From Candidatus Altarchaeum sp. (GTDB lineage: Archaea > Altiarchaeota > Altiarchaeia > Altiarchaeales > Altiarchaeaceae): DNA of 15,459 nucleotides. Position 1 is the first letter of the stretch. The number at the start of each line of letters is the position of its first letter. Positions 3,567-13,510 of the stretch are shown piece by piece. A program made the position numbers and the translations under genes. Under the pieces are notes generated by a model that searched no databases, was not told the DNA's origin, and worked only from the letters and a program-made list of their open reading frames with translations. Location: NCBI GenBank assembly GCA_018260615.1, contig JAGWDQ010000008.1:1-15459 (forward strand), read 5' to 3'.

Positions 3567-3765
3567 ATACGGAAGTTTTAAATACTGAAAATCTACGGGA
3601 TTTTCAATCTTTAAAAATCTACAAGATTTTTAAATACTGAAAATTTATAAAATTTTCAATCTTTAAAAATTTATAAAATTTTTTAAATACTGAAAATCTA
3701 CAAGATTTTCAATCTTTAAAATAAATTTTAAATACTAAAAATCTACAAGATTTTTAAATACGGAA
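3564..3765. repeat. Tandem array of palindromic units (52, 53, 45, 26 bp) between glnA and the Lrp gene, bounded by TAAATACGGAA
   Basis: Units start with AAATACT at 3580, 3632, 3685, 3730 and contain TGAAAATCT-ACA-AGATTTTCA-type hairpins. The 11-mer TAAATACGGAA occurs at 3564-3574 and 3755-3765. Confidence 0.92.
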
Positions 3766-4278
3766 ATGAAATGGACAAGAAATGAAAGAAAGGTATTGGG
3801 ATATCTGATTGAAAATGCAAAAATAACCGACAGCGAAATTGCAGAAAAATTACATATAACACCTCAGGCAGTTGGAAAAATAAGAAAAAAATTAGAAACC
3901 AGTGGAGTAATAAAGGGCTATCATGCAGTTGTAGATCTTGAAAAGACAGGCATTAATGTCATCGCTATCGGAATGTTTAAATTTAATATTGACGCATTCG
4001 GCGAATCTGAAAATATCAGGGAAAGTATAGATACGGATATCACAAAACGAATACAAAATCCTTTGATTATAAATTTTTACCGGCTTCCCGAAGGGGATAT
4101 TACGCACATCGTTGTTTACGGATTTAAAACCATTAACGAACTGGATTCTTATTTTCACACACTTCAGGCAAAAAGAGGACATATAAGCGAGCTGAAAAAT
4201 TTATACATACTTTCGGTAAAAAGCATGAAAAAGTCCTCTCCGAATGATTTGCTCGTTAAATTACTCAAGGAGGATTAA
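3766..4278 (+). CDS. Lrp/AsnC family transcriptional regulator
   Basis: N-terminal HTH LIENAKITDSEIAEKLHITPQAVGKIRKKLETSGVIKGYHAVVD with a divergent C-terminal effector domain; 170 aa. Confidence 0.88.
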   Translation: MKWTRNERKVLGYLIENAKITDSEIAEKLHITPQAVGKIRKKLETSGVIKGYHAVVDLEKTGINVIAIGMFKFNIDAFGESENIRESIDTDITKRIQNPLIINFYRLPEGDITHIVVYGFKTINELDSYFHTLQAKRGHISELKNLYILSVKSMKKSSPNDLLVKLLKED

Positions 4279-5469: not shown

Positions 5470-6429
5470 ATGGATGCTGAAAAAATAAAAAATTTAAAAA
5501 ATTTAAAGGAAAATTTAACCGAAATAATAACCGAAGACGAATTTGACAACCTGAAAGAAGGCAGCGTTGTTTATTGCGGATACGAAACATCCGGCCCATT
5601 TCACATAGGAACTATGACGACTGCATTAAATTTACTACGACTTCAGAATGCCGGATTTAAGGTAAAAATTTTGCTCGCCGATGTTCATACGAAACTGAAC
5701 TGTAAAGGCGATGCTCAGTTTATTGAAGAAATGGTTAATTACTGGAAAAAATGCTTCGTTGCTCTCGGATTGAAAGATGCGGAATTTGTTTGCGGCTCTG
5801 AGTTTCAGTTTGAAACGGCTTACATAAAAGATGTATTAACACTGGGCTTACAGATTACGGTAGATAGAGCAAAGAGAAGTATGCAGGAAGTGGCAAGAGA
5901 CCTTGAAAATGCGAAGGTTTCACAGATGATTTATCCGCTTATGCAGATTGCAGACATGAAGGCATTAAAGGTTGATGTTGCTTACGGCGGATTAGAGCAG
6001 AGAAAAATTCACATGTTAGCGAGGGAAATTTTGCCAACGATTTATAAAAATATTGTATTTGTCCATAGTCCTTTAATCGTATCTCTTTTAGGACCCGGTT
6101 CAAAGATGTCAAGCAGCAAGCCGGAAACGATGATAAAGATTGACGAAGAGCCGGAAGTAATAAAGAAAAAAATTTCATCCGCATATTGTCCAATATCAAC
6201 AGAAGACAATCCGGTTTTACAAATTTGTAAATTTATAATATTTTCAAAGACGGCTAAATTTGAAGTAAAAAGGTTAACAAAATTCGGCGGAAATCTGGAA
6301 TTTGATAATTATGGGGAGTTAGAGGATGCGTTTATAAACAAAAAATTACATCCTGCCGATTTAAAGAGTGCAACAGCAGAAAATCTGATTGAAATTTTAA
6401 ATCCTGTAAGAGAGGAAATAAAGAAATAA
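5470..6429 (+). CDS. tyrS: Tyrosine--tRNA ligase, archaeal type
   Basis: YCGYETSGPFHIG (HIGH-like), LLADVH, YPLMQIAD, GGLEQRKIHMLARE, KMSSS, KISSAYCP, LHPADLK. Confidence 0.97.
   Translation: MDAEKIKNLKNLKENLTEIITEDEFDNLKEGSVVYCGYETSGPFHIGTMTTALNLLRLQNAGFKVKILLADVHTKLNCKGDAQFIEEMVNYWKKCFVALGLKDAEFVCGSEFQFETAYIKDVLTLGLQITVDRAKRSMQEVARDLENAKVSQMIYPLMQIADMKALKVDVAYGGLEQRKIHMLAREILPTIYKNIVFVHSPLIVSLLGPGSKMSSSKPETMIKIDEEPEVIKKKISSAYCPISTEDNPVLQICKFIIFSKTAKFEVKRLTKFGGNLEFDNYGELEDAFINKKLHPADLKSATAENLIEILNPVREEIKK
6388..6422 (+). repeat. att-like 35-bp direct repeat, copy 1 (inside tyrS 3' end)
   Basis: ATTGAAATTTTAAATCCTGTAAGAGAGGAAATAAA, identical to 8166-8200. Confidence 0.95.
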
Positions 6430-6455
6430 AAATTTAAGGTTAAATTTTATAAAAA

Positions 6456-7076
6456 ATGAAAATTTACAGCTTCGGTCATGGTGCTCAACCATTTGATGAA
6501 TTTTTAAATAAAATAAATCAGGCAAAGATTAATATAATATTTGATATGAGAGAAAGACCTTTTTCAAGATATTACCCTTATTTTAACCGAAAGGCGTTAG
6601 AAAAGAAATTAGGAGAAAAATATGTATTTGCAGGTGGTTTTTTAGGAGGCAGCTCAAATTTTCATAATGACCTGTTAGAATATATGGAAAACAAGGGAAA
6701 AAATTTAACTCCTGAAAACAGATTATCTTCTTTAATTGATGAAAAAACAAGGGAAAAAATATTTTCTAAAAATATGAATTTTTCAAATGACGAAAAAAGG
6801 AAAGAGTGGATTACAGAAAATTTTCTAAAATTTTACATCCCCCCTCAAAGACGCCAACAAGCCATTAATTTTTTAAAAGAAAAGGTATTTACAAAAGAAA
6901 ATGAGGATAAGATTATTTGTTTTTTGTGCTCTGAAAAAAATTATAAATTTTGCCACAGATATTATTTGTTAGAGGAGGACTGGTTAAAGGAATTTCCACA
7001 GGTTAAAGAGGTTTTTCATTTGGGAGAACAATTATGCAAAACGATAAACAAAGAACACCTCTTAAACAATTATTAA
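6456..7076 (+). CDS. DUF488 family protein
   Basis: IYSFGHG..F.EF, IFDMRERPFSRYYPYFNRKAL, Y...G.LGG, and CFLCSEKNYKFCHRYYL (C.E....CHR signature of DUF488). Confidence 0.88.
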   Translation: MKIYSFGHGAQPFDEFLNKINQAKINIIFDMRERPFSRYYPYFNRKALEKKLGEKYVFAGGFLGGSSNFHNDLLEYMENKGKNLTPENRLSSLIDEKTREKIFSKNMNFSNDEKRKEWITENFLKFYIPPQRRQQAINFLKEKVFTKENEDKIICFLCSEKNYKFCHRYYLLEEDWLKEFPQVKEVFHLGEQLCKTINKEHLLNNY

Positions 7077-7086
7077 TAGTAGGGAA

Positions 7087-7848
7087 ATGAAAAAGAAAAT
7101 AATAATTACTTATTTTAGCAAGTGGAACAATGGAATTTGCATTTTTGGTTATGATGAAGAATATAATGGAATAAGGCCCATTTATGATTGGGATAAGGAA
7201 AAAACTCCGTTACCATGGCCAGATAATCCTGAAACACGGCAAATAGTCCCCTTTACGGAAGTAGAATTTGATTTTGATGATGAGAATACTTATCCAACTT
7301 CCCCTCCACATACAGAGGACAAAGTATTGAAAAATAGAGAATATCATCAGATAATAAGAACCATTTCAGAAAAAGAAAAGAAAGAATTTTTAGAAAAGTT
7401 AACATCCAAGTCAATTAAAGAAGATTTTTGGGGAACAAATTGGTATGCATATAATCCACATCTAACAAAAAACAAAAGTGGAGATATAACATTTGCTTAT
7501 ATAATACCTGTGGAAGGAAAAAGGTCTATTGTAACCATAAAGAAAAAGAAATGTAAGTTTACTCTTGATGATCGTGATGAAGTAAGGATAGAATCGCCTA
7601 TAAAATCTGAAATTTTTTATAGTTTTGCTATTACAGATTTGGAATTGGAGCATTATGTGAATAAAGGTGAGGCGAAACGTATTGAAAAGAAATATATTGT
7701 TGAAGAATTAAACCAAAATATAAGTGGAATAGACATTTTTCTGCGAATAGGAACAGGAAGACCTTTTAAACCAATGCCTGATTTTGAGGGGTGTTTTTTA
7801 TTTGTTACGGGTATTTATTCGTTTCCTGATTACAAAACAAAAATTTAG
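7087..7848 (+). CDS. Dual-OB (DuOB)-like protein, partner of DUF488
   Basis: Pattern IIITYFSKWNNGICIFG...GIRPI, SPPHTED, FAITD, FLRIGTGRPF...CFLFVTGI recalls DuOB proteins (S-x-K...C-x-x-G...RP; C-terminal G.PF..C..V.GI). Recognised from memory; needs HMM confirmation. Confidence 0.65.
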   Translation: MKKKIIITYFSKWNNGICIFGYDEEYNGIRPIYDWDKEKTPLPWPDNPETRQIVPFTEVEFDFDDENTYPTSPPHTEDKVLKNREYHQIIRTISEKEKKEFLEKLTSKSIKEDFWGTNWYAYNPHLTKNKSGDITFAYIIPVEGKRSIVTIKKKKCKFTLDDRDEVRIESPIKSEIFYSFAITDLELEHYVNKGEAKRIEKKYIVEELNQNISGIDIFLRIGTGRPFKPMPDFEGCFLFVTGIYSFPDYKTKI

Positions 7849-7883
7849 ATAAATTTGTGGTAAATAGTTACAATAGTTTATAC

Positions 7884-7905
7884 ATTTAAGTTCAAAATTT
7901 TAATT
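7884..7905 (+). repeat. 22-bp direct repeat, copy 1 (copy 2 at 8228-8249)
   Basis: ATTTAAGTTCAAAATTTTAATT vs ATTTAACTTCAAAATTTTAATT, 21/22 identical; AT-rich, so statistically weaker than the 35-mer. Confidence 0.6.
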
Positions 7906-7968
7906 ATAACGAATTCACTAATTACACACACTTCGTTACGCCCAAAATCAAAAGATTTTTGAGGAAAG

Positions 7969-8157
7969 ATGACAAAACCACTTAAAAAATGTCCGATTTG
8001 CGGTGGAAAAGTTGAAGGGGAAAAAACTGGTAAAATTACCAATACACGCAGGGACTTTGTAAAGATTCAGAAAATCAGGGAAGAATTGAATAATAAAATT
8101 CCGGTATTAAAGCAAATCATGTATATCTATGCCTATCCTGTCGCAGAAAGTGTTTGA
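7969..8157 (+). pseudogene. Possible remnant of a YgiT-type zinc-finger gene (only the first CxxC remains)
   Basis: MTKPLKKCPICGGKVE start preceded by GAGG; no second Cys pair; ends 8 nt before the att-like repeat. Confidence 0.35.
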
Positions 8158-8165
8158 TTTTAAGA

Positions 8166-8213
8166 ATTGAAATTTTAAATCCTGTAAGAGAGGAAATAAA
8201 AACCAATGGCTAA
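8166..8213 (+). repeat. att-like 35-bp direct repeat, copy 2 (8166-8200), followed by an alternative tyrS tail
   Basis: Identical to 6388-6422. In the tyrS frame it reads IEILNPVREEIKTNG-stop (TAA 8211-8213). Confidence 0.93.
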
Positions 8214-8277
8214 ATTTGATGTTTTAAATTTAACTTCAAAATTTTAATTGATATCAATATTAATAATAACCTATAAA

Positions 8278-8724
8278 ATGGATAACACAACGGACCAAAA
8301 AGAGGACTTTAAGTTAATTCAGAAGACAGATAAAGAGATAGAAATTGAAGCATTAGTTGCAAAAGAAATTCCCGACATAGTTAGAAAAAAACTGATAGAG
8401 AAAAAAATTGATGCTTATGTTTATACTCCCCATCCGCTGCTAAATGGGCCACGAATACATATTCACTCATCAGACCCGGCAGATGACTTAATTTCGGCAA
8501 GCGAGGATGTTGAGAATGACTTAAAGGAATTTAAGGAATTAGTTGGCAAAGAATTTAAGAAGGTGAAAAAGGAAGACAAAAAAGAAAACACTAAGAAGGA
8601 AGAAAAGAAAGAAGAAAAGAATATTGAAGATGAAAAAAAGGATGTGAAATCAGCGGATGCCGAAGAAAAATCAGAGAAGGTCGGAAAAAAGAGGGGCAGA
8701 CCGAAAAAAGAAGAAAAAATTTAA
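8278..8724 (+). CDS. rpoL: Divergent RNA polymerase subunit Rpo11 (RpoL) with a Lys/Glu-rich C-terminal tail
   Basis: EIEIE...IVRKKL.....AYVYTPHPLLNGPRIHIHSSDP...L..A...V..DLKEF matches the Rpo11 fold pattern (HPL...P.i.i). The usual DHTLGN is replaced by AKEIPD. ATG 8278 preferred over TTG 8248. Confidence 0.7.
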   Translation: MDNTTDQKEDFKLIQKTDKEIEIEALVAKEIPDIVRKKLIEKKIDAYVYTPHPLLNGPRIHIHSSDPADDLISASEDVENDLKEFKELVGKEFKKVKKEDKKENTKKEEKKEEKNIEDEKKDVKSADAEEKSEKVGKKRGRPKKEEKI

Positions 8725-8751
8725 ATTTTTATTTTAAAATTTTTATTTAAA

Positions 8752-8826
8752 GGGCTTGTAGCTCAGGTTGGTTAGAGCGCACGACTGATAATCGTGAGGC
8801 CTGGTGTTCAAATCACCACAGGCCCG
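8752..8826 (+). tRNA. tRNA-Ile (anticodon GAT at 8787-8789), no intron, CCA not encoded
   Basis: Acceptor GGGCTTG/CAGGCCC, D-arm GCTC/GAGC, anticodon arm CACGA-CTGATAA-TCGTG, T-arm TGGTG-TTCAAAT-CACCA. Confidence 0.97.
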
Positions 8827-8902
8827 TTATTTATTAAATTTTATAAATTTTAATTTTTTTGAAATTTTAGAGAAATTTTAATCATGAAATTACCTTCATC
8901 AA

Positions 8903-10084: not shown

Positions 10085-13000
10085 ATGACTATTGAAATTA
10101 GCTTTACTGACAGAGTATTGAATGCTTTCAAAAACATAATCAACGAGGTAGAAGAAGGGTCTTTGGAACATGATATCCGTCCCAGATTTGTGAAATATTT
10201 TATAGAGCAGGTTCTGGGATATTCTGGATCTGATTACAGATACGAAAAAAACAGAACAGACATTACAATATTTGATGAAAATCGCTTTCCTGTCATTAAA
10301 ATTGAGACAAAGCCGCCAAAGGAAGACATTAATCAGACAAAACATGAAGAACAAGCTTTTGGGTATGCAGAAGAAACAACTAGATTCATAATCCTGACGA
10401 ATTTCTTACAGTTTAAATTATGGGAAATCAAAAAAACAGGCAGTGAGATGAGAGTTGATTTGGACTTTTCAAATATAGAAAAACAAAGAAAACTAACTAA
10501 TGAAGCGGAAAATAAAGAAAAGGAACAGATATTATTTTTCAACAATTTAACCAGGGAAAATATTTTTGACACAGGCAAATATGCAAAATTTAATGAGACC
10601 TACGCAAGAATAGATATAACCAAAGAAACGGGCTTTACAAAACTTCTTGAAAGATTAAATTATGTCGCCGGCACATTGCTTTATAGCTATACTTTAAAGG
10701 CATTTGGCGAATATAAAGAAGGGTACGGCAGGTATTTGACTGAGTTTAACGAAGTTGAAAAACACTCAAAAAATAATAAAGGAAATCCGGAATTAACGCA
10801 CAACATAGCAAAATATAAACAGAAACTGAATGAAAAGTATGAAAAGTACAAAACATTCCCGGGTTACTGGTTATGGAAAGAATACTCGGGAAAAGAGAAT
10901 ATCCCTGATGATGAGGTAAAAGAAATTTTTTGTAAAGAGACAATTTATGTTTTTCTTAATAAGTTAATGTTCCTGCGGATTTGCGAAGACAAAGGTCTTC
11001 TTGAAAAAAACATCTCAAATGGTGGTATTGAAGAAATGAGAAATTTTTTGACAAAAAGGTTTAAAGAGGGTGTCATAAACAAAGAAATTTTAGAAATAGC
11101 ATTCAAAAGTGCTATGGGTTTATACTCTCATTTTTATGAGACAGGCATTCTTGACTGGTTCAGAACAGGAGATGGTGAATTAAACGAATTACTAAACAGG
11201 GTCTTGTGGATTTTAAATCAGTTTGATTTTGCTCATGTAGACAGGGATATTTTAGGTAACCTTTATGAAAAATATCTGCCTATTGGAGAAAGGAAAAAAT
11301 TGGGAGAATTTTACACGCCAACCGAAGTAATAGATTATATTTTAACATCCGTTGGCTATACTTACAGTTATGATATTGAGATAAAGGACTTGCTTGATCC
11401 CGCATGTGGTTCAGGTGGTTTCTTAGTAAGAGCAACGAGAAGATTGATCAGCAGATATCTGATGAAGTTCGGCAAAACCGACAAGAGCGAACTAATAAAT
11501 CCTAAGAATTGGGAGAAAATTGCAGACAGGTTATCACCTGACGAGTCAAAGAATATTCTTGAAGCCATTCAGGAACATATATACGGACTGGATATTAATC
11601 CGTTTGCCTGCCATATTGCAGAAATGAACATGCTATTCCAGACAATTGACTTGTACCAAAAAACAAAAGAAAAATATCCGGATTACAAACTTAAAAGATT
11701 TAAGATTTACAGAACCGACTCTTTAGAAAAACCCTCACAGAAACAAATTATAGATTATAGTTACTCTGTATTTTTAGAAGAACAGGAGGAAATCTGTTCA
11801 ATCAAGAATAAGAAATTTGATTATGTTGTGGGAAATCCGCCTTATGTTAGAGTTCAAATGTTAGACAAAAGAGTAAAGGATTATATAAAAAAGGAATATA
11901 AAACACCCGTAGGAAAATTTGACATTTATGTACCTTTTATAGAAAGGGGAATTCATTGGTTAAAAGATAATTCAAAATTGGGCTATATCAATCCTAATTT
12001 ATTTTTCAACAGGGACTATGGAAAAGAGATAAGAAAGTTTTTGTTAGAAAATACGATCTTACAAATAATTGATTTTGGAGATTCCGGGGTTTTTAAAGAT
12101 GTAACAAATTATCCGTGCATTTTTGTAGTTCAAAAGAAGAAATCCGTCGGAAACAAAATAAGGACAATTGTTGTTAACCTGGCAAAAGACGGGCTTCTCT
12201 ATGACATTCAAAAAAGATTTTATCAAAAAAACTATAAAAACGAATACTTTTCGTTGTTTGATGTTGAACAGAGTAAACTAGGGTTTGAGCAATGGAAATT
12301 AATTTCTGATCGTTCATTAAGATTATTTAATAAAATTAAATCTTCAACGGATAAAGCACTTTTTAATATAACTGAAAGGATTTACGAAGGTTTTATAACC
12401 GGCAATAATAAAATTTATTTTGTAACTCCTGAAAAAGCCAGGGGTCTACGTCTGGAGAAAAAGTTGTTAAAACTATTGCCCAAAGGCAGAAATGTAAGAC
12501 GATGGACATATTCCGCAGACAGATTTGTTATTTATCCTTATGAATATGTTAATGGGAAAACCGAAGTGATACGAGATATAAAATCTGAATATCCTAACAC
12601 ATGGCAATACTTCAAAGATAATGAATTCGAACTTAAGAACAGGAAGTATCTAATGGATGCTATCCAAAACGGAAGTAGAAAAGAATGGTTCGAAATCTGG
12701 AATCCAAGAAGATATTCCTGGTTCAATCAGCCAAAGATCATAACGCCCAACCTATCTACAAAAAATAATTTTGCATTTGACGAAGAAGGTATGTTTTTGG
12801 ATCACGATTGCTATGGAATTATACTGGATAATAAAGACAGAAATAACTATTTGTATGTTCTTGGACTTCTAAATTCCATGCTTTTAGAGTTTTATCTAAA
12901 ACAAATAAGTCCGTATGCTTCCGGAAAGTATTACAGATACATGACGAGCTATCTTAAAAAACTGCCGATTAAACTTCCTCAAACTTCGGAAGAACAGAAA

Positions 13001-13510
13001 ATATCAAACCAGATTATAAAGAAAGTTGATGAAATTCTTGAACTGCATAAATCCGAAATCCTGAATATAGATGAAATTCCTGAAGGCGAAGAAACAGAAA
13101 AATTATGTAATCTACCAGAAGTTATCTTTTCCATAAATGACAATACCGAATTTGTGAAAGTTAAGTCCGAAGAAAATAGGATATATATAAATTCCTGTGA
13201 TTTCATAGAAATAAAAAATAAGAAAATATCGGACTTTATCAGAGTATATCTTAATTCAAATGAAGAAAAATTTGCTAAAGCCAAAGATATTAAAAGCATG
13301 CTCATCAATTTACCTGTTCCAAAATCCGATGAAATTTTAAGAGAGATAATCAAAAAAGGCAGCGTTGATCATTCTCAAATCAAAGAAAAAATCAAGAACA
13401 TAGAACAGGAAATTGATGAATTGGTTTATAAAATTTACGGACTTGAAGAGGAGGATATAAAAATCATAGAAGAGTTTTTTAAGGATGATAAATCAAAATG
13501 GATTTCATAA
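10085..13510 (+). CDS. Fused Type IIG restriction-modification enzyme (PD-(D/E)XK nuclease + N6-adenine methyltransferase + TaqI-C-like TRD)
   Basis: RTDITIFD...VIKIETK nuclease motif, LGEFYTP, motif I LLDPACGSGGFLV, YGLDINPFA, motif IV FDYVVGNPPY, DIYVPFIERG, KIITPNL, YVLGLLNS.LLEFYLK. Confidence 0.9.
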   Translation: MTIEISFTDRVLNAFKNIINEVEEGSLEHDIRPRFVKYFIEQVLGYSGSDYRYEKNRTDITIFDENRFPVIKIETKPPKEDINQTKHEEQAFGYAEETTRFIILTNFLQFKLWEIKKTGSEMRVDLDFSNIEKQRKLTNEAENKEKEQILFFNNLTRENIFDTGKYAKFNETYARIDITKETGFTKLLERLNYVAGTLLYSYTLKAFGEYKEGYGRYLTEFNEVEKHSKNNKGNPELTHNIAKYKQKLNEKYEKYKTFPGYWLWKEYSGKENIPDDEVKEIFCKETIYVFLNKLMFLRICEDKGLLEKNISNGGIEEMRNFLTKRFKEGVINKEILEIAFKSAMGLYSHFYETGILDWFRTGDGELNELLNRVLWILNQFDFAHVDRDILGNLYEKYLPIGERKKLGEFYTPTEVIDYILTSVGYTYSYDIEIKDLLDPACGSGGFLVRATRRLISRYLMKFGKTDKSELINPKNWEKIADRLSPDESKNILEAIQEHIYGLDINPFACHIAEMNMLFQTIDLYQKTKEKYPDYKLKRFKIYRTDSLEKPSQKQIIDYSYSVFLEEQEEICSIKNKKFDYVVGNPPYVRVQMLDKRVKDYIKKEYKTPVGKFDIYVPFIERGIHWLKDNSKLGYINPNLFFNRDYGKEIRKFLLENTILQIIDFGDSGVFKDVTNYPCIFVVQKKKSVGNKIRTIVVNLAKDGLLYDIQKRFYQKNYKNEYFSLFDVEQSKLGFEQWKLISDRSLRLFNKIKSSTDKALFNITERIYEGFITGNNKIYFVTPEKARGLRLEKKLLKLLPKGRNVRRWTYSADRFVIYPYEYVNGKTEVIRDIKSEYPNTWQYFKDNEFELKNRKYLMDAIQNGSRKEWFEIWNPRRYSWFNQPKIITPNLSTKNNFAFDEEGMFLDHDCYGIILDNKDRNNYLYVLGLLNSMLLEFYLKQISPYASGKYYRYMTSYLKKLPIKLPQTSEEQKISNQIIKKVDEILELHKSEILNIDEIPEGEETEKLCNLPEVIFSINDNTEFVKVKSEENRIYINSCDFIEIKNKKISDFIRVYLNSNEEKFAKAKDIKSMLINLPVPKSDEILREIIKKGSVDHSQIKEKIKNIEQEIDELVYKIYGLEEEDIKIIEEFFKDDKSKWIS

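Follow-up and report, generated by a model that had tools for sequence, protein, structure and literature searches.

A two-layer, recombinase-free accessory insert between tyrS and rpoL of Candidatus Altiarchaeum, probably formed by insertion with long target duplication

In the Candidatus Altiarchaeum genome studied here (G000), the tyrosyl-tRNA synthetase gene tyrS is separated from rpoL, the gene for RNA polymerase subunit L, by an islet (6423-8165) that is bordered and interrupted by copies of the 3' end of tyrS itself. The locus lies on contig JAGWDQ010000008.1, a complete contig of a metagenome-assembled genome (MAG) that is 87% complete, and this whole stretch of 15,459 nucleotides is called the window below. 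Comparison with the related species G001, G002 and G003, and with further contigs and loci that carry L numbers, leads us to regard the islet as a recombinase-free accessory insert of two layers, which probably arose by insertion with long target duplication. The features of the locus are as follows.

5470-6429, + strand: tyrS, archaeal-type tyrosine--tRNA ligase of 319 aa, ending EEIKK-stop (NCBIfam NF006330, 374.6 bits; Pfam tRNA-synt_1b).
6388-6422, + strand: proximal copy of an exact 35-nt repeat, spanning the final tyrS codons.
6415-6430, + strand: 8-nt tandem duplication, GAAATAAA twice, which turns a native-type EEIKI-stop end into EEIKK-stop (compared with the ends in G001, G003, L032 and L036).
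6423-6447, + strand: native-type tyrS tail and initial spacer bases, flanking the DUF488-DuOB insertion on its left (collinear in BLAST with G002 and G003 as far as 6447-6450; alignment).
6456-7076, + strand: first gene of the younger cassette, for a long DUF488-family protein of 206 aa (Pfam DUF488, 41 bits, cut-off 22.2; PADLOC PDC-M45B, E 6e-18).
7087-7848, + strand: second gene of the younger cassette, for a DuOB (dual OB-fold) protein of 253 aa (Pfam PF22557, 35.5 bits, cut-off 27).
7834-7905, + strand: displaced middle copy, with tyrS tail, spacer and rpoL upstream motif; in the older cassette it makes up the right-hand part of the left repeat (aligns with the live tyrS end and spacer of G003 and with the left repeat of G002).
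7906-7944, + strand: old toxin-antitoxin cassette leader; compared with G002, a deletion of 407 nt at 7944/7945 has removed the DUF4258 toxin gene in full.
7969-8157, + strand: remnant, 62 aa, of a YgiT/MqsA-type zinc-ribbon antitoxin gene (60% identity to the 85-aa antitoxin of G002; BLAST blocks).
8166-8249, + strand: distal copy, comprising the exact 35-mer (8166-8200), a fossil tail whose TNG-stop ends at 8213, and spacer that includes the rpoL upstream motif (collinear with G001 and L036, where the target is single-copy).
8278-8724, + strand: rpoL, with a K/E-rich tail, which directly follows tyrS in empty-site genomes (NCBIfam NF002240, E 7.8e-08, under the family cut-off; synteny).
8752-8826, + strand: tRNA-Ile (GAT), a bystander outside the islet.

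The repeat that borders the islet had been noticed in an earlier, sequence-only reading of this DNA, and its description holds: a run of 35 bp at 6388-6422 recurs exactly at 8166-8200, at an offset of 1778 bp, and these are the only two copies in the window as well as in the entire 2.2-Mb assembly. This is far above chance expectation: when the window was simulated 200 times with an order-2 Markov model, the longest exact repeat was 15.6 +/- 1.2 nt on average and never exceeded 22 nt. Translation likewise agrees with what had been read from the two ends, the C-terminus of TyrRS being ...IEILNPVREEIKK-stop (EEIKK-stop) and the distal copy, ahead of which lies an in-frame stop, reading RIEILNPVREEIKTNG-stop (EEIKTNG-stop) up to the stop at 8213. 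The homology exceeds 35 nt. The distal copy extends to 8249, and its proximal counterpart is divided into 6423-6447 and 7834-7905 because of a later insertion, with 89% identity between 7878-7905 and 8222-8249. The duplicated target measures about 75-83 nt.

The tyrS-rpoL neighbourhood is conserved across the genus and the spacer within it is variable. Occupied sites are found in G000, G002 and G003 and empty ones in G001, L032 and L036, and the flanks align between them. The spacer measures 29 nt in L036 and approximately 117 nt in G001/L032, and in all of these TyrRS ends EEIKI, as it also does in G003. The presence of two related lineages in which rpoL comes directly after tyrS bears out both the proposal that the stretch is an insertion beside the tyrS 3' end and the forecast of empty-site relatives of this kind. 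The companion forecast, that the native TyrRS would end EEIKTNG, failed, since the ends of every empty-site TyrRS and of that of G003 are EEIKI. The distal copy had been interpreted as the displaced original end of the gene; it is indeed a displaced tyrS tail, but its TNG tail aligns as a native-type tail with a 25-nt insertion and therefore resembles a decayed fossil rather than an original end. Nor is any part played by the tRNA-Ile gene supported, as it is identically placed in the empty-site genome G001.

The older of the two layers is best seen in G002, where two 75-nt direct repeats, identical at 72/75 positions and 813 nt apart, enclose an insert of 738 nt. These repeats duplicate the final ~40 nt of tyrS together with the spacer as far as an A/T-rich motif just upstream of rpoL, and both are collinear with the single copy of the empty-site genomes. 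The only cargo between them is a toxin gene of the DUF4258 family (74 bits) with an antitoxin gene of the YgiT zinc-finger type (TIGR03831, 34.2 bits), both over their family cut-offs, and the toxin-antitoxin pair of G002 is intact. Positions 7866-8165 of the window correspond to this cassette and have the same right junction, which is identical in all three occupied species. G003 has lost the toxin gene along with half the antitoxin gene, and its distal repeat is degenerate; it and G000 carry different deletions of one cassette. In G000 the antitoxin remnant has undergone a further in-frame deletion of 69 nt at 8062/8063 (23 residues), with loss of the second Cys pair; its GC content at third codon positions (GC3) is host-like. 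In relation to known DUF4258/YgiT-type (MqsA-like) type II toxin-antitoxin pairs, the G002 cassette contains both genes and the 62-aa open reading frame (ORF) of G000 is a homologue of the antitoxin, whereas G000 has no toxin gene and its antitoxin no second Cys pair; what remains in G000 is read as a relic, not a working pair. A search of 185,579 species genomes with the longer leader motif matched only G002 and G003, which argues against a multicopy element. Paralogous DUF4258/YgiT loci are present elsewhere in the genome, one on contig C80 without a flanking repeat and one on C62 with a 69-nt repeat that touches the contig end.

What had been described as a single element therefore consists of two nested cassettes of different age. 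The younger is the DUF488-DuOB pair, whose genes lie on the same strand with a gap of 10 nt and both score above the Pfam cut-offs. It is found in neither G002 nor G003, and it interrupts the left repeat in such a way that the final codons and TAG stop of the DuOB gene sit in the displaced tyrS tail. The resulting DuOB C-terminus is FPDYKTKI; in 9/11 aligned homologues the protein ends with FPDYK plus one residue, mostly K. GC3 is 0.256 for the DUF488 gene and 0.22 for the DuOB gene, compared with 0.32-0.34 for core genes. The DUF488 start codon follows the tyrS stop by 26 nt, and the pair is therefore probably transcribed by read-through from tyrS.

The pairing of a long DUF488 gene with DuOB recurs in unrelated metagenomic contigs, where it accompanies type I restriction-modification and UvrD-like helicase genes, or Fic and RadC, or lies near an Eco57I-like gene. 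Adjacent DUF488 and DuOB genes are seen in L016-L018, L131, L133 and L134. Its relation to the candidate defence system PADLOC PDC-M45 is visible in the PDC-M45B match of the DUF488 protein and in the conserved pairing beside restriction-modification genes, whereas the DuOB protein matches no PADLOC model and the long DUF488 gene is single here, other families of the same class having a three-gene DUF488-DUF488-DuOB arrangement. The AlphaFold model of DuOB (predicted local distance difference test score, pLDDT, 80) returned weak Foldseek matches to tandem-OB DNA binders of the RPA/POT1/HIN type and nothing at E <= 1e-3, and a sequence search of the PDB with the DUF488 protein gave nothing useful. 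DUF488-DuOB is probably a nucleic-acid-binding, defence-associated module. A functional link of DuOB with class I W/Y synthetases (tyrS here, trpS in G021) was considered and rejected, the other contexts being restriction-modification and repair genes. The DUF488-DUF488-DuOB genes at L016:392-3160 (G021) overlap each other, and the set also overlaps the beginning of trpS, with aroA lying after trpS. L017:388-2190 (G056) encodes a 600-aa protein in which a DuOB-like N-terminal part is fused to RQC, HRDC and HEAT repeats, adjoining two DUF488 genes and a UvrD-like helicase gene.

It is extremely improbable that the arrangement is an artefact of assembly, namely a repeat-induced chimera in which DNA of different genomes has been joined at the 35-mer. 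Such a chimera would be compatible with the fact that the window is an entire MAG contig and with the exact ending of k=31 contigs at the 35-mer in what is probably the source run. Against it stand six other public assemblies from JGI, ENA and NCBI sources with the identical order (some of them have source samples in common), a single unbroken k=31 contig from a second sample that covers 5900-8615, and hence the whole islet, in a haplotype with two mismatches in the proximal repeat, and the homologous structures of the sister species. The six assemblies and the spanning contig practically exclude the misassembly on which the sequence-only reading would have foundered. As regards the sequencing runs, no RNA run was listed as containing the locus, X3 had no match to it, and the depths of 3296 upstream and 2496 in the islet for X1 are per-contig means that cannot be interpreted. 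One contig of run X2 matches tyrS to 6432 and continues with 255 nt that are absent from this genome and from all loci compared; it may come from a co-occurring strain in which something else occupies the site.

A second haplotype of the same species, represented by the assemblies L122, L125 and L126 and by an X2 contig, was compared with the window. The two differ at 24/1059 positions in the methyltransferase gene, at 26/918 in tyrS before the repeat and at 29/1095 in the M50 gene, whereas the islet (6423-8165) shows 0/1743 differences and the distal repeat with its spacer 0/112. Ahead of the islet, the nearest differences are those at 6411 and 6414, within the proximal repeat of the L122/L125/L126 haplotype, and the first in rpoL is at 8478. 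A Logan contig gives the same picture. At the 2.3-2.8% divergence of the flanking core, approximately 44 differences would have been expected in the islet; the islet must therefore have been shared between lineages long after the core diverged, or the flanks have been replaced around it. Under either reading homologous exchange ends at the islet edge, and we take the islet to have been shared recently between strains by homologous recombination.

The two differences within the proximal repeat also make the exactness of the 35-mer haplotype-dependent. A third haplotype, L124, combines the tyrS of the other haplotype with the exact 35-mer. In G002 the repeats are closer to each other than to the tyrS ends of other species, and the TyrRS end, GKITS, is also that of the fossil copy. 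The mixture in L124 and the resemblance of the G002 repeats therefore indicate gene conversion between repeats. The 35-mer had been proposed as the core of an attachment (att) site; with a target of ~75-83 nt, its exact identity points instead to a haplotype-specific conversion patch.

The comparisons show directly the anatomy, the empty sites, the nesting, the decay, the polymorphism of the repeat and the recent sharing between haplotypes; from these the order of events, gene conversion, read-through expression and the recombination mechanism are inferred. The probable history that best explains the observations is as follows. In the first and older layer, a DUF4258-toxin/YgiT-antitoxin cassette would have entered the tyrS-rpoL spacer with duplication of a target of ~75 nt, an event that would have kept tyrS whole and provided the cassette and rpoL each with the upstream motif; G000 has since lost the toxin gene, and its antitoxin gene is truncated. 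In the second layer, younger and species-specific, a foreign, promoterless DUF488-DuOB pair would have been inserted at the tyrS stop, within the left repeat, displacing the old tyrS tail downstream, where it would have come to serve as the last codons and stop of DuOB. The spare tails would have recombined repeatedly with the live tyrS end by gene conversion, because of which 35 nt would be exactly identical in this haplotype, and the islet would move between strains by means of host homologous recombination. The original insertion would most likely have occurred without an element-encoded integrase, for example if a circle or looped-out copy bearing the target segment had recombined with the site in the manner of a Campbell-type crossover.

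Integrases build islets at the 3' ends of tRNA and protein genes, and integrase-less derivatives of such islets are known as cis-mobilizable elements (CIMEs). The sequence-only reading favoured an origin of this kind for the islet here, as a classical site-specific element with an integrase elsewhere or since deleted, which entered by recombination of an attP mimicking the tyrS tail with attB and left the repeats as attL and attR, the islet being its decayed, cis-mobilizable remnant. We consider this origin unlikely, for all that it would explain direct repeats at the 3' end of a conserved gene with restoration of the gene end, the single repeat copy of empty sites, one right junction in three species and the double use of the site; as in integrase-made islets and CIMEs, the repeats are attL/attR-like, empty sites exist, inserts have accreted at one place and the cargo has decayed. 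The genome does encode one tyrosine recombinase (PF00589), on contig C79, which passes the XerA model and is XerA/integron-integrase-like. Unlike integrase-made islets, however, this one contains neither an integrase nor the remains of one, whether in the three species or in the haplotypes, and no partner with a matching attP was found. Pfam searches of all three ORFs between the repeats detected no recombinase, transposase or replication domain, upholding what had been read from the letters, and no recombinase domain is present elsewhere on the 15-kb contig, nor any serine recombinase (PF00239) in the 87%-complete genome. The G002 cargo is very small at 738 nt, the 75-nt repeat has no evident short core, and the native TNG end that this origin predicted was not found. 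A degenerate 32-nt pattern of the repeat had no match in 2.9 million viral contigs, plasmid and metagenome collections not having been scanned. There is no attC-like hairpin after DuOB, the segment 7849-7968 folding as single-stranded DNA with z = -0.16 relative to shuffles; a palindrome in G003 is not conserved, and an Rfam search of 6300-8900 in E-value mode returned only the tRNA.

Less probable still is a local origin, in which the segment made up of the tyrS tail and the rpoL upstream motif was duplicated in tandem by slippage or unequal crossover and unrelated DNA was then captured illegitimately between the copies; as the duplication would have come first, the repeats would not be a product of the insertion event. 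The spacer is certainly unstable, as judged from its range of 29 to ~117 nt in empty sites, the 8-nt duplication, the 25-nt insertion and an insert in L032 resembling a miniature inverted-repeat transposable element (MITE), and the genome has hundreds of local direct repeats (a genome-wide scan gave 860 pairs of >=24 nt, which are uncurated and were not used as evidence). Yet no genome was found with cargo-free tandem copies, a tail copy borders each of two separate cassettes, and cargo of the addiction or defence type is what modules that move horizontally typically carry.

Insertion with long target duplication remains the probable origin of the islet, and several points weigh against it or against parts of the history given above. 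An integrase could have been missed in a genome that is 87% complete, and action of the XerA-like enzyme in trans is conceivable. The younger cassette has similar sequences at its two junctions, which speaks for the nesting, but this short repeat is of weak significance (p ~0.024). No excision, deletion or circle junctions occur in the contigs of the two Logan runs that contain the locus, contigs being a form of the data in which rare forms are dropped. The branching order of G000-G003 was not resolved by trees of tyrS, of the ligase or of four concatenated genes; the empty site of G001 may be ancestral or the outcome of secondary loss, and the insertions may have been independent. The zero divergence of the islet could also have arisen if imports had replaced the flanking core genes around a static islet. 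Finally, the putative defence role of DUF488-DuOB is drawn only from gene neighbourhood and a hidden Markov model of a candidate system.

Insertion with long target duplication was reportedly described for restriction-modification gene units by Nobusato and co-workers in 2000. The survey of such units by Furuta, Abe & Kobayashi (2010; PMC2853133) includes no archaeal case, and in its Haemophilus cases the repeat also overlaps a gene 3' end. The locus described here resembles those cases (PMC2853133) in being a small selfish or defence gene unit without a mobility gene, bordered by direct repeats longer than 30 nt (75 nt in G002; 35 nt exact within a copy of ~83 nt in G000) that each align with the single copy of an empty site, in its presence/absence polymorphism and in the size of the insert, which is below 20 kb in both G002 (738 nt) and G000 (1743 nt). 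The cargo differs, consisting of DUF4258/YgiT and DUF488/DuOB instead of restriction-modification genes, and the likeness is thus one of insertion mode; the Altiarchaeum locus is further distinguished from the surveyed cases (PMC2853133) by its archaeal host, by two stacked insertions and by what appears to be ongoing gene conversion between the repeats.

A looser parallel, drawn from general knowledge, is the displacement of old ends. Rhs, contact-dependent inhibition (CDI) and type VI secretion system (T6SS) toxin loci acquire a new gene end together with its cargo by recombination in a conserved part of the gene, and the displaced 3' ends accumulate downstream as orphans. Old ends pile up downstream of tyrS too, but here they amount to a few codons of a housekeeping synthetase with no functional tie to the cargo, and the tails are nearly synonymous instead of being alternative toxin tips.

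How small defence and addiction modules without mobility genes spread is poorly understood, and the mechanism of insertion with long target duplication has never been settled. The tyrS-rpoL locus provides a compact natural series within one uncultivated archaeal genus, in which the site can be seen empty, with one cassette intact, with cassettes in decay and with a second one stacked on the first. As the population data make the islet look far younger than its flanking core genes, with repeats that still seem to exchange with a live essential gene, the site could be used for testing recombinase-free cassette traffic, and the long DUF488 and DuOB genes add a conserved two-gene module to the candidates of defence islands. 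It is nonetheless a single locus, a fairly ordinary instance of a known insertion pattern, and it alters no larger picture. More speculatively, the spacer might be a recombinase-free docking site, at which the segment of tyrS tail and upstream motif would act as a portable homology arm for the loop-out, transfer, re-entry and stacking of small addiction and defence cassettes by host homologous recombination, while fossil tails would rewrite the C-terminus of an essential synthetase by gene conversion, as in the GKITS end of G002; we put this forward as a tentative idea, doubtful at present.

Several other features of the window and of the related loci were observed. The MITE-like insert of L032 (L032:5961-6160), a contig closely related to G001, is ~190 nt long, has internal inverted repeats and a 7-nt target duplication (TTTTTTG), and lies in an otherwise empty spacer, a further sign of the tyrS-rpoL spacer as an insertion hotspot. 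The K/E-rich C-terminal tail of rpoL (8555-8724) varies through repeat indels, giving a protein of 148, 161 or 174 aa among assemblies. Further downstream, at 10085-13510 and between the M50 peptidase and DNA ligase genes, the window contains a gene for a 1141-aa MmeI/Eco57I-like type IIG restriction-methyltransferase, similar by NCBIfam to PglX of bacteriophage exclusion (BREX) systems. This gene is not at this place in G002 or G003, and between the haplotypes it shows 2-5 differences in ~1.7 kb compared with 2.6% in the M50 gene; it has the look of another accessory insert that was shared recently. The idea that the 5' end of the ligase gene is duplicated upstream of this gene was considered and rejected, there being only a 28-nt match at 79%. 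In L116/L117 (G001:C67) the DNA ligase gene is a single frame of 1119 aa with ~1.8 kb inserted between ligase residues 185 and 236, which is probably an intein, and L032:2609-4986 is a stretch of ~2.4 kb, additional to what the window has, that separates the methyltransferase gene from tyrS. Short palindromic units that recur about every 26 nt form intergenic arrays at 1788-2112 and 3575-3766 of the window, and similar units are found at two places in the G003-like contig L033. The contig starts with a 64-nt direct repeat (1-64 and 161-224), the copies of which are 98% identical at a spacing of 160 nt.

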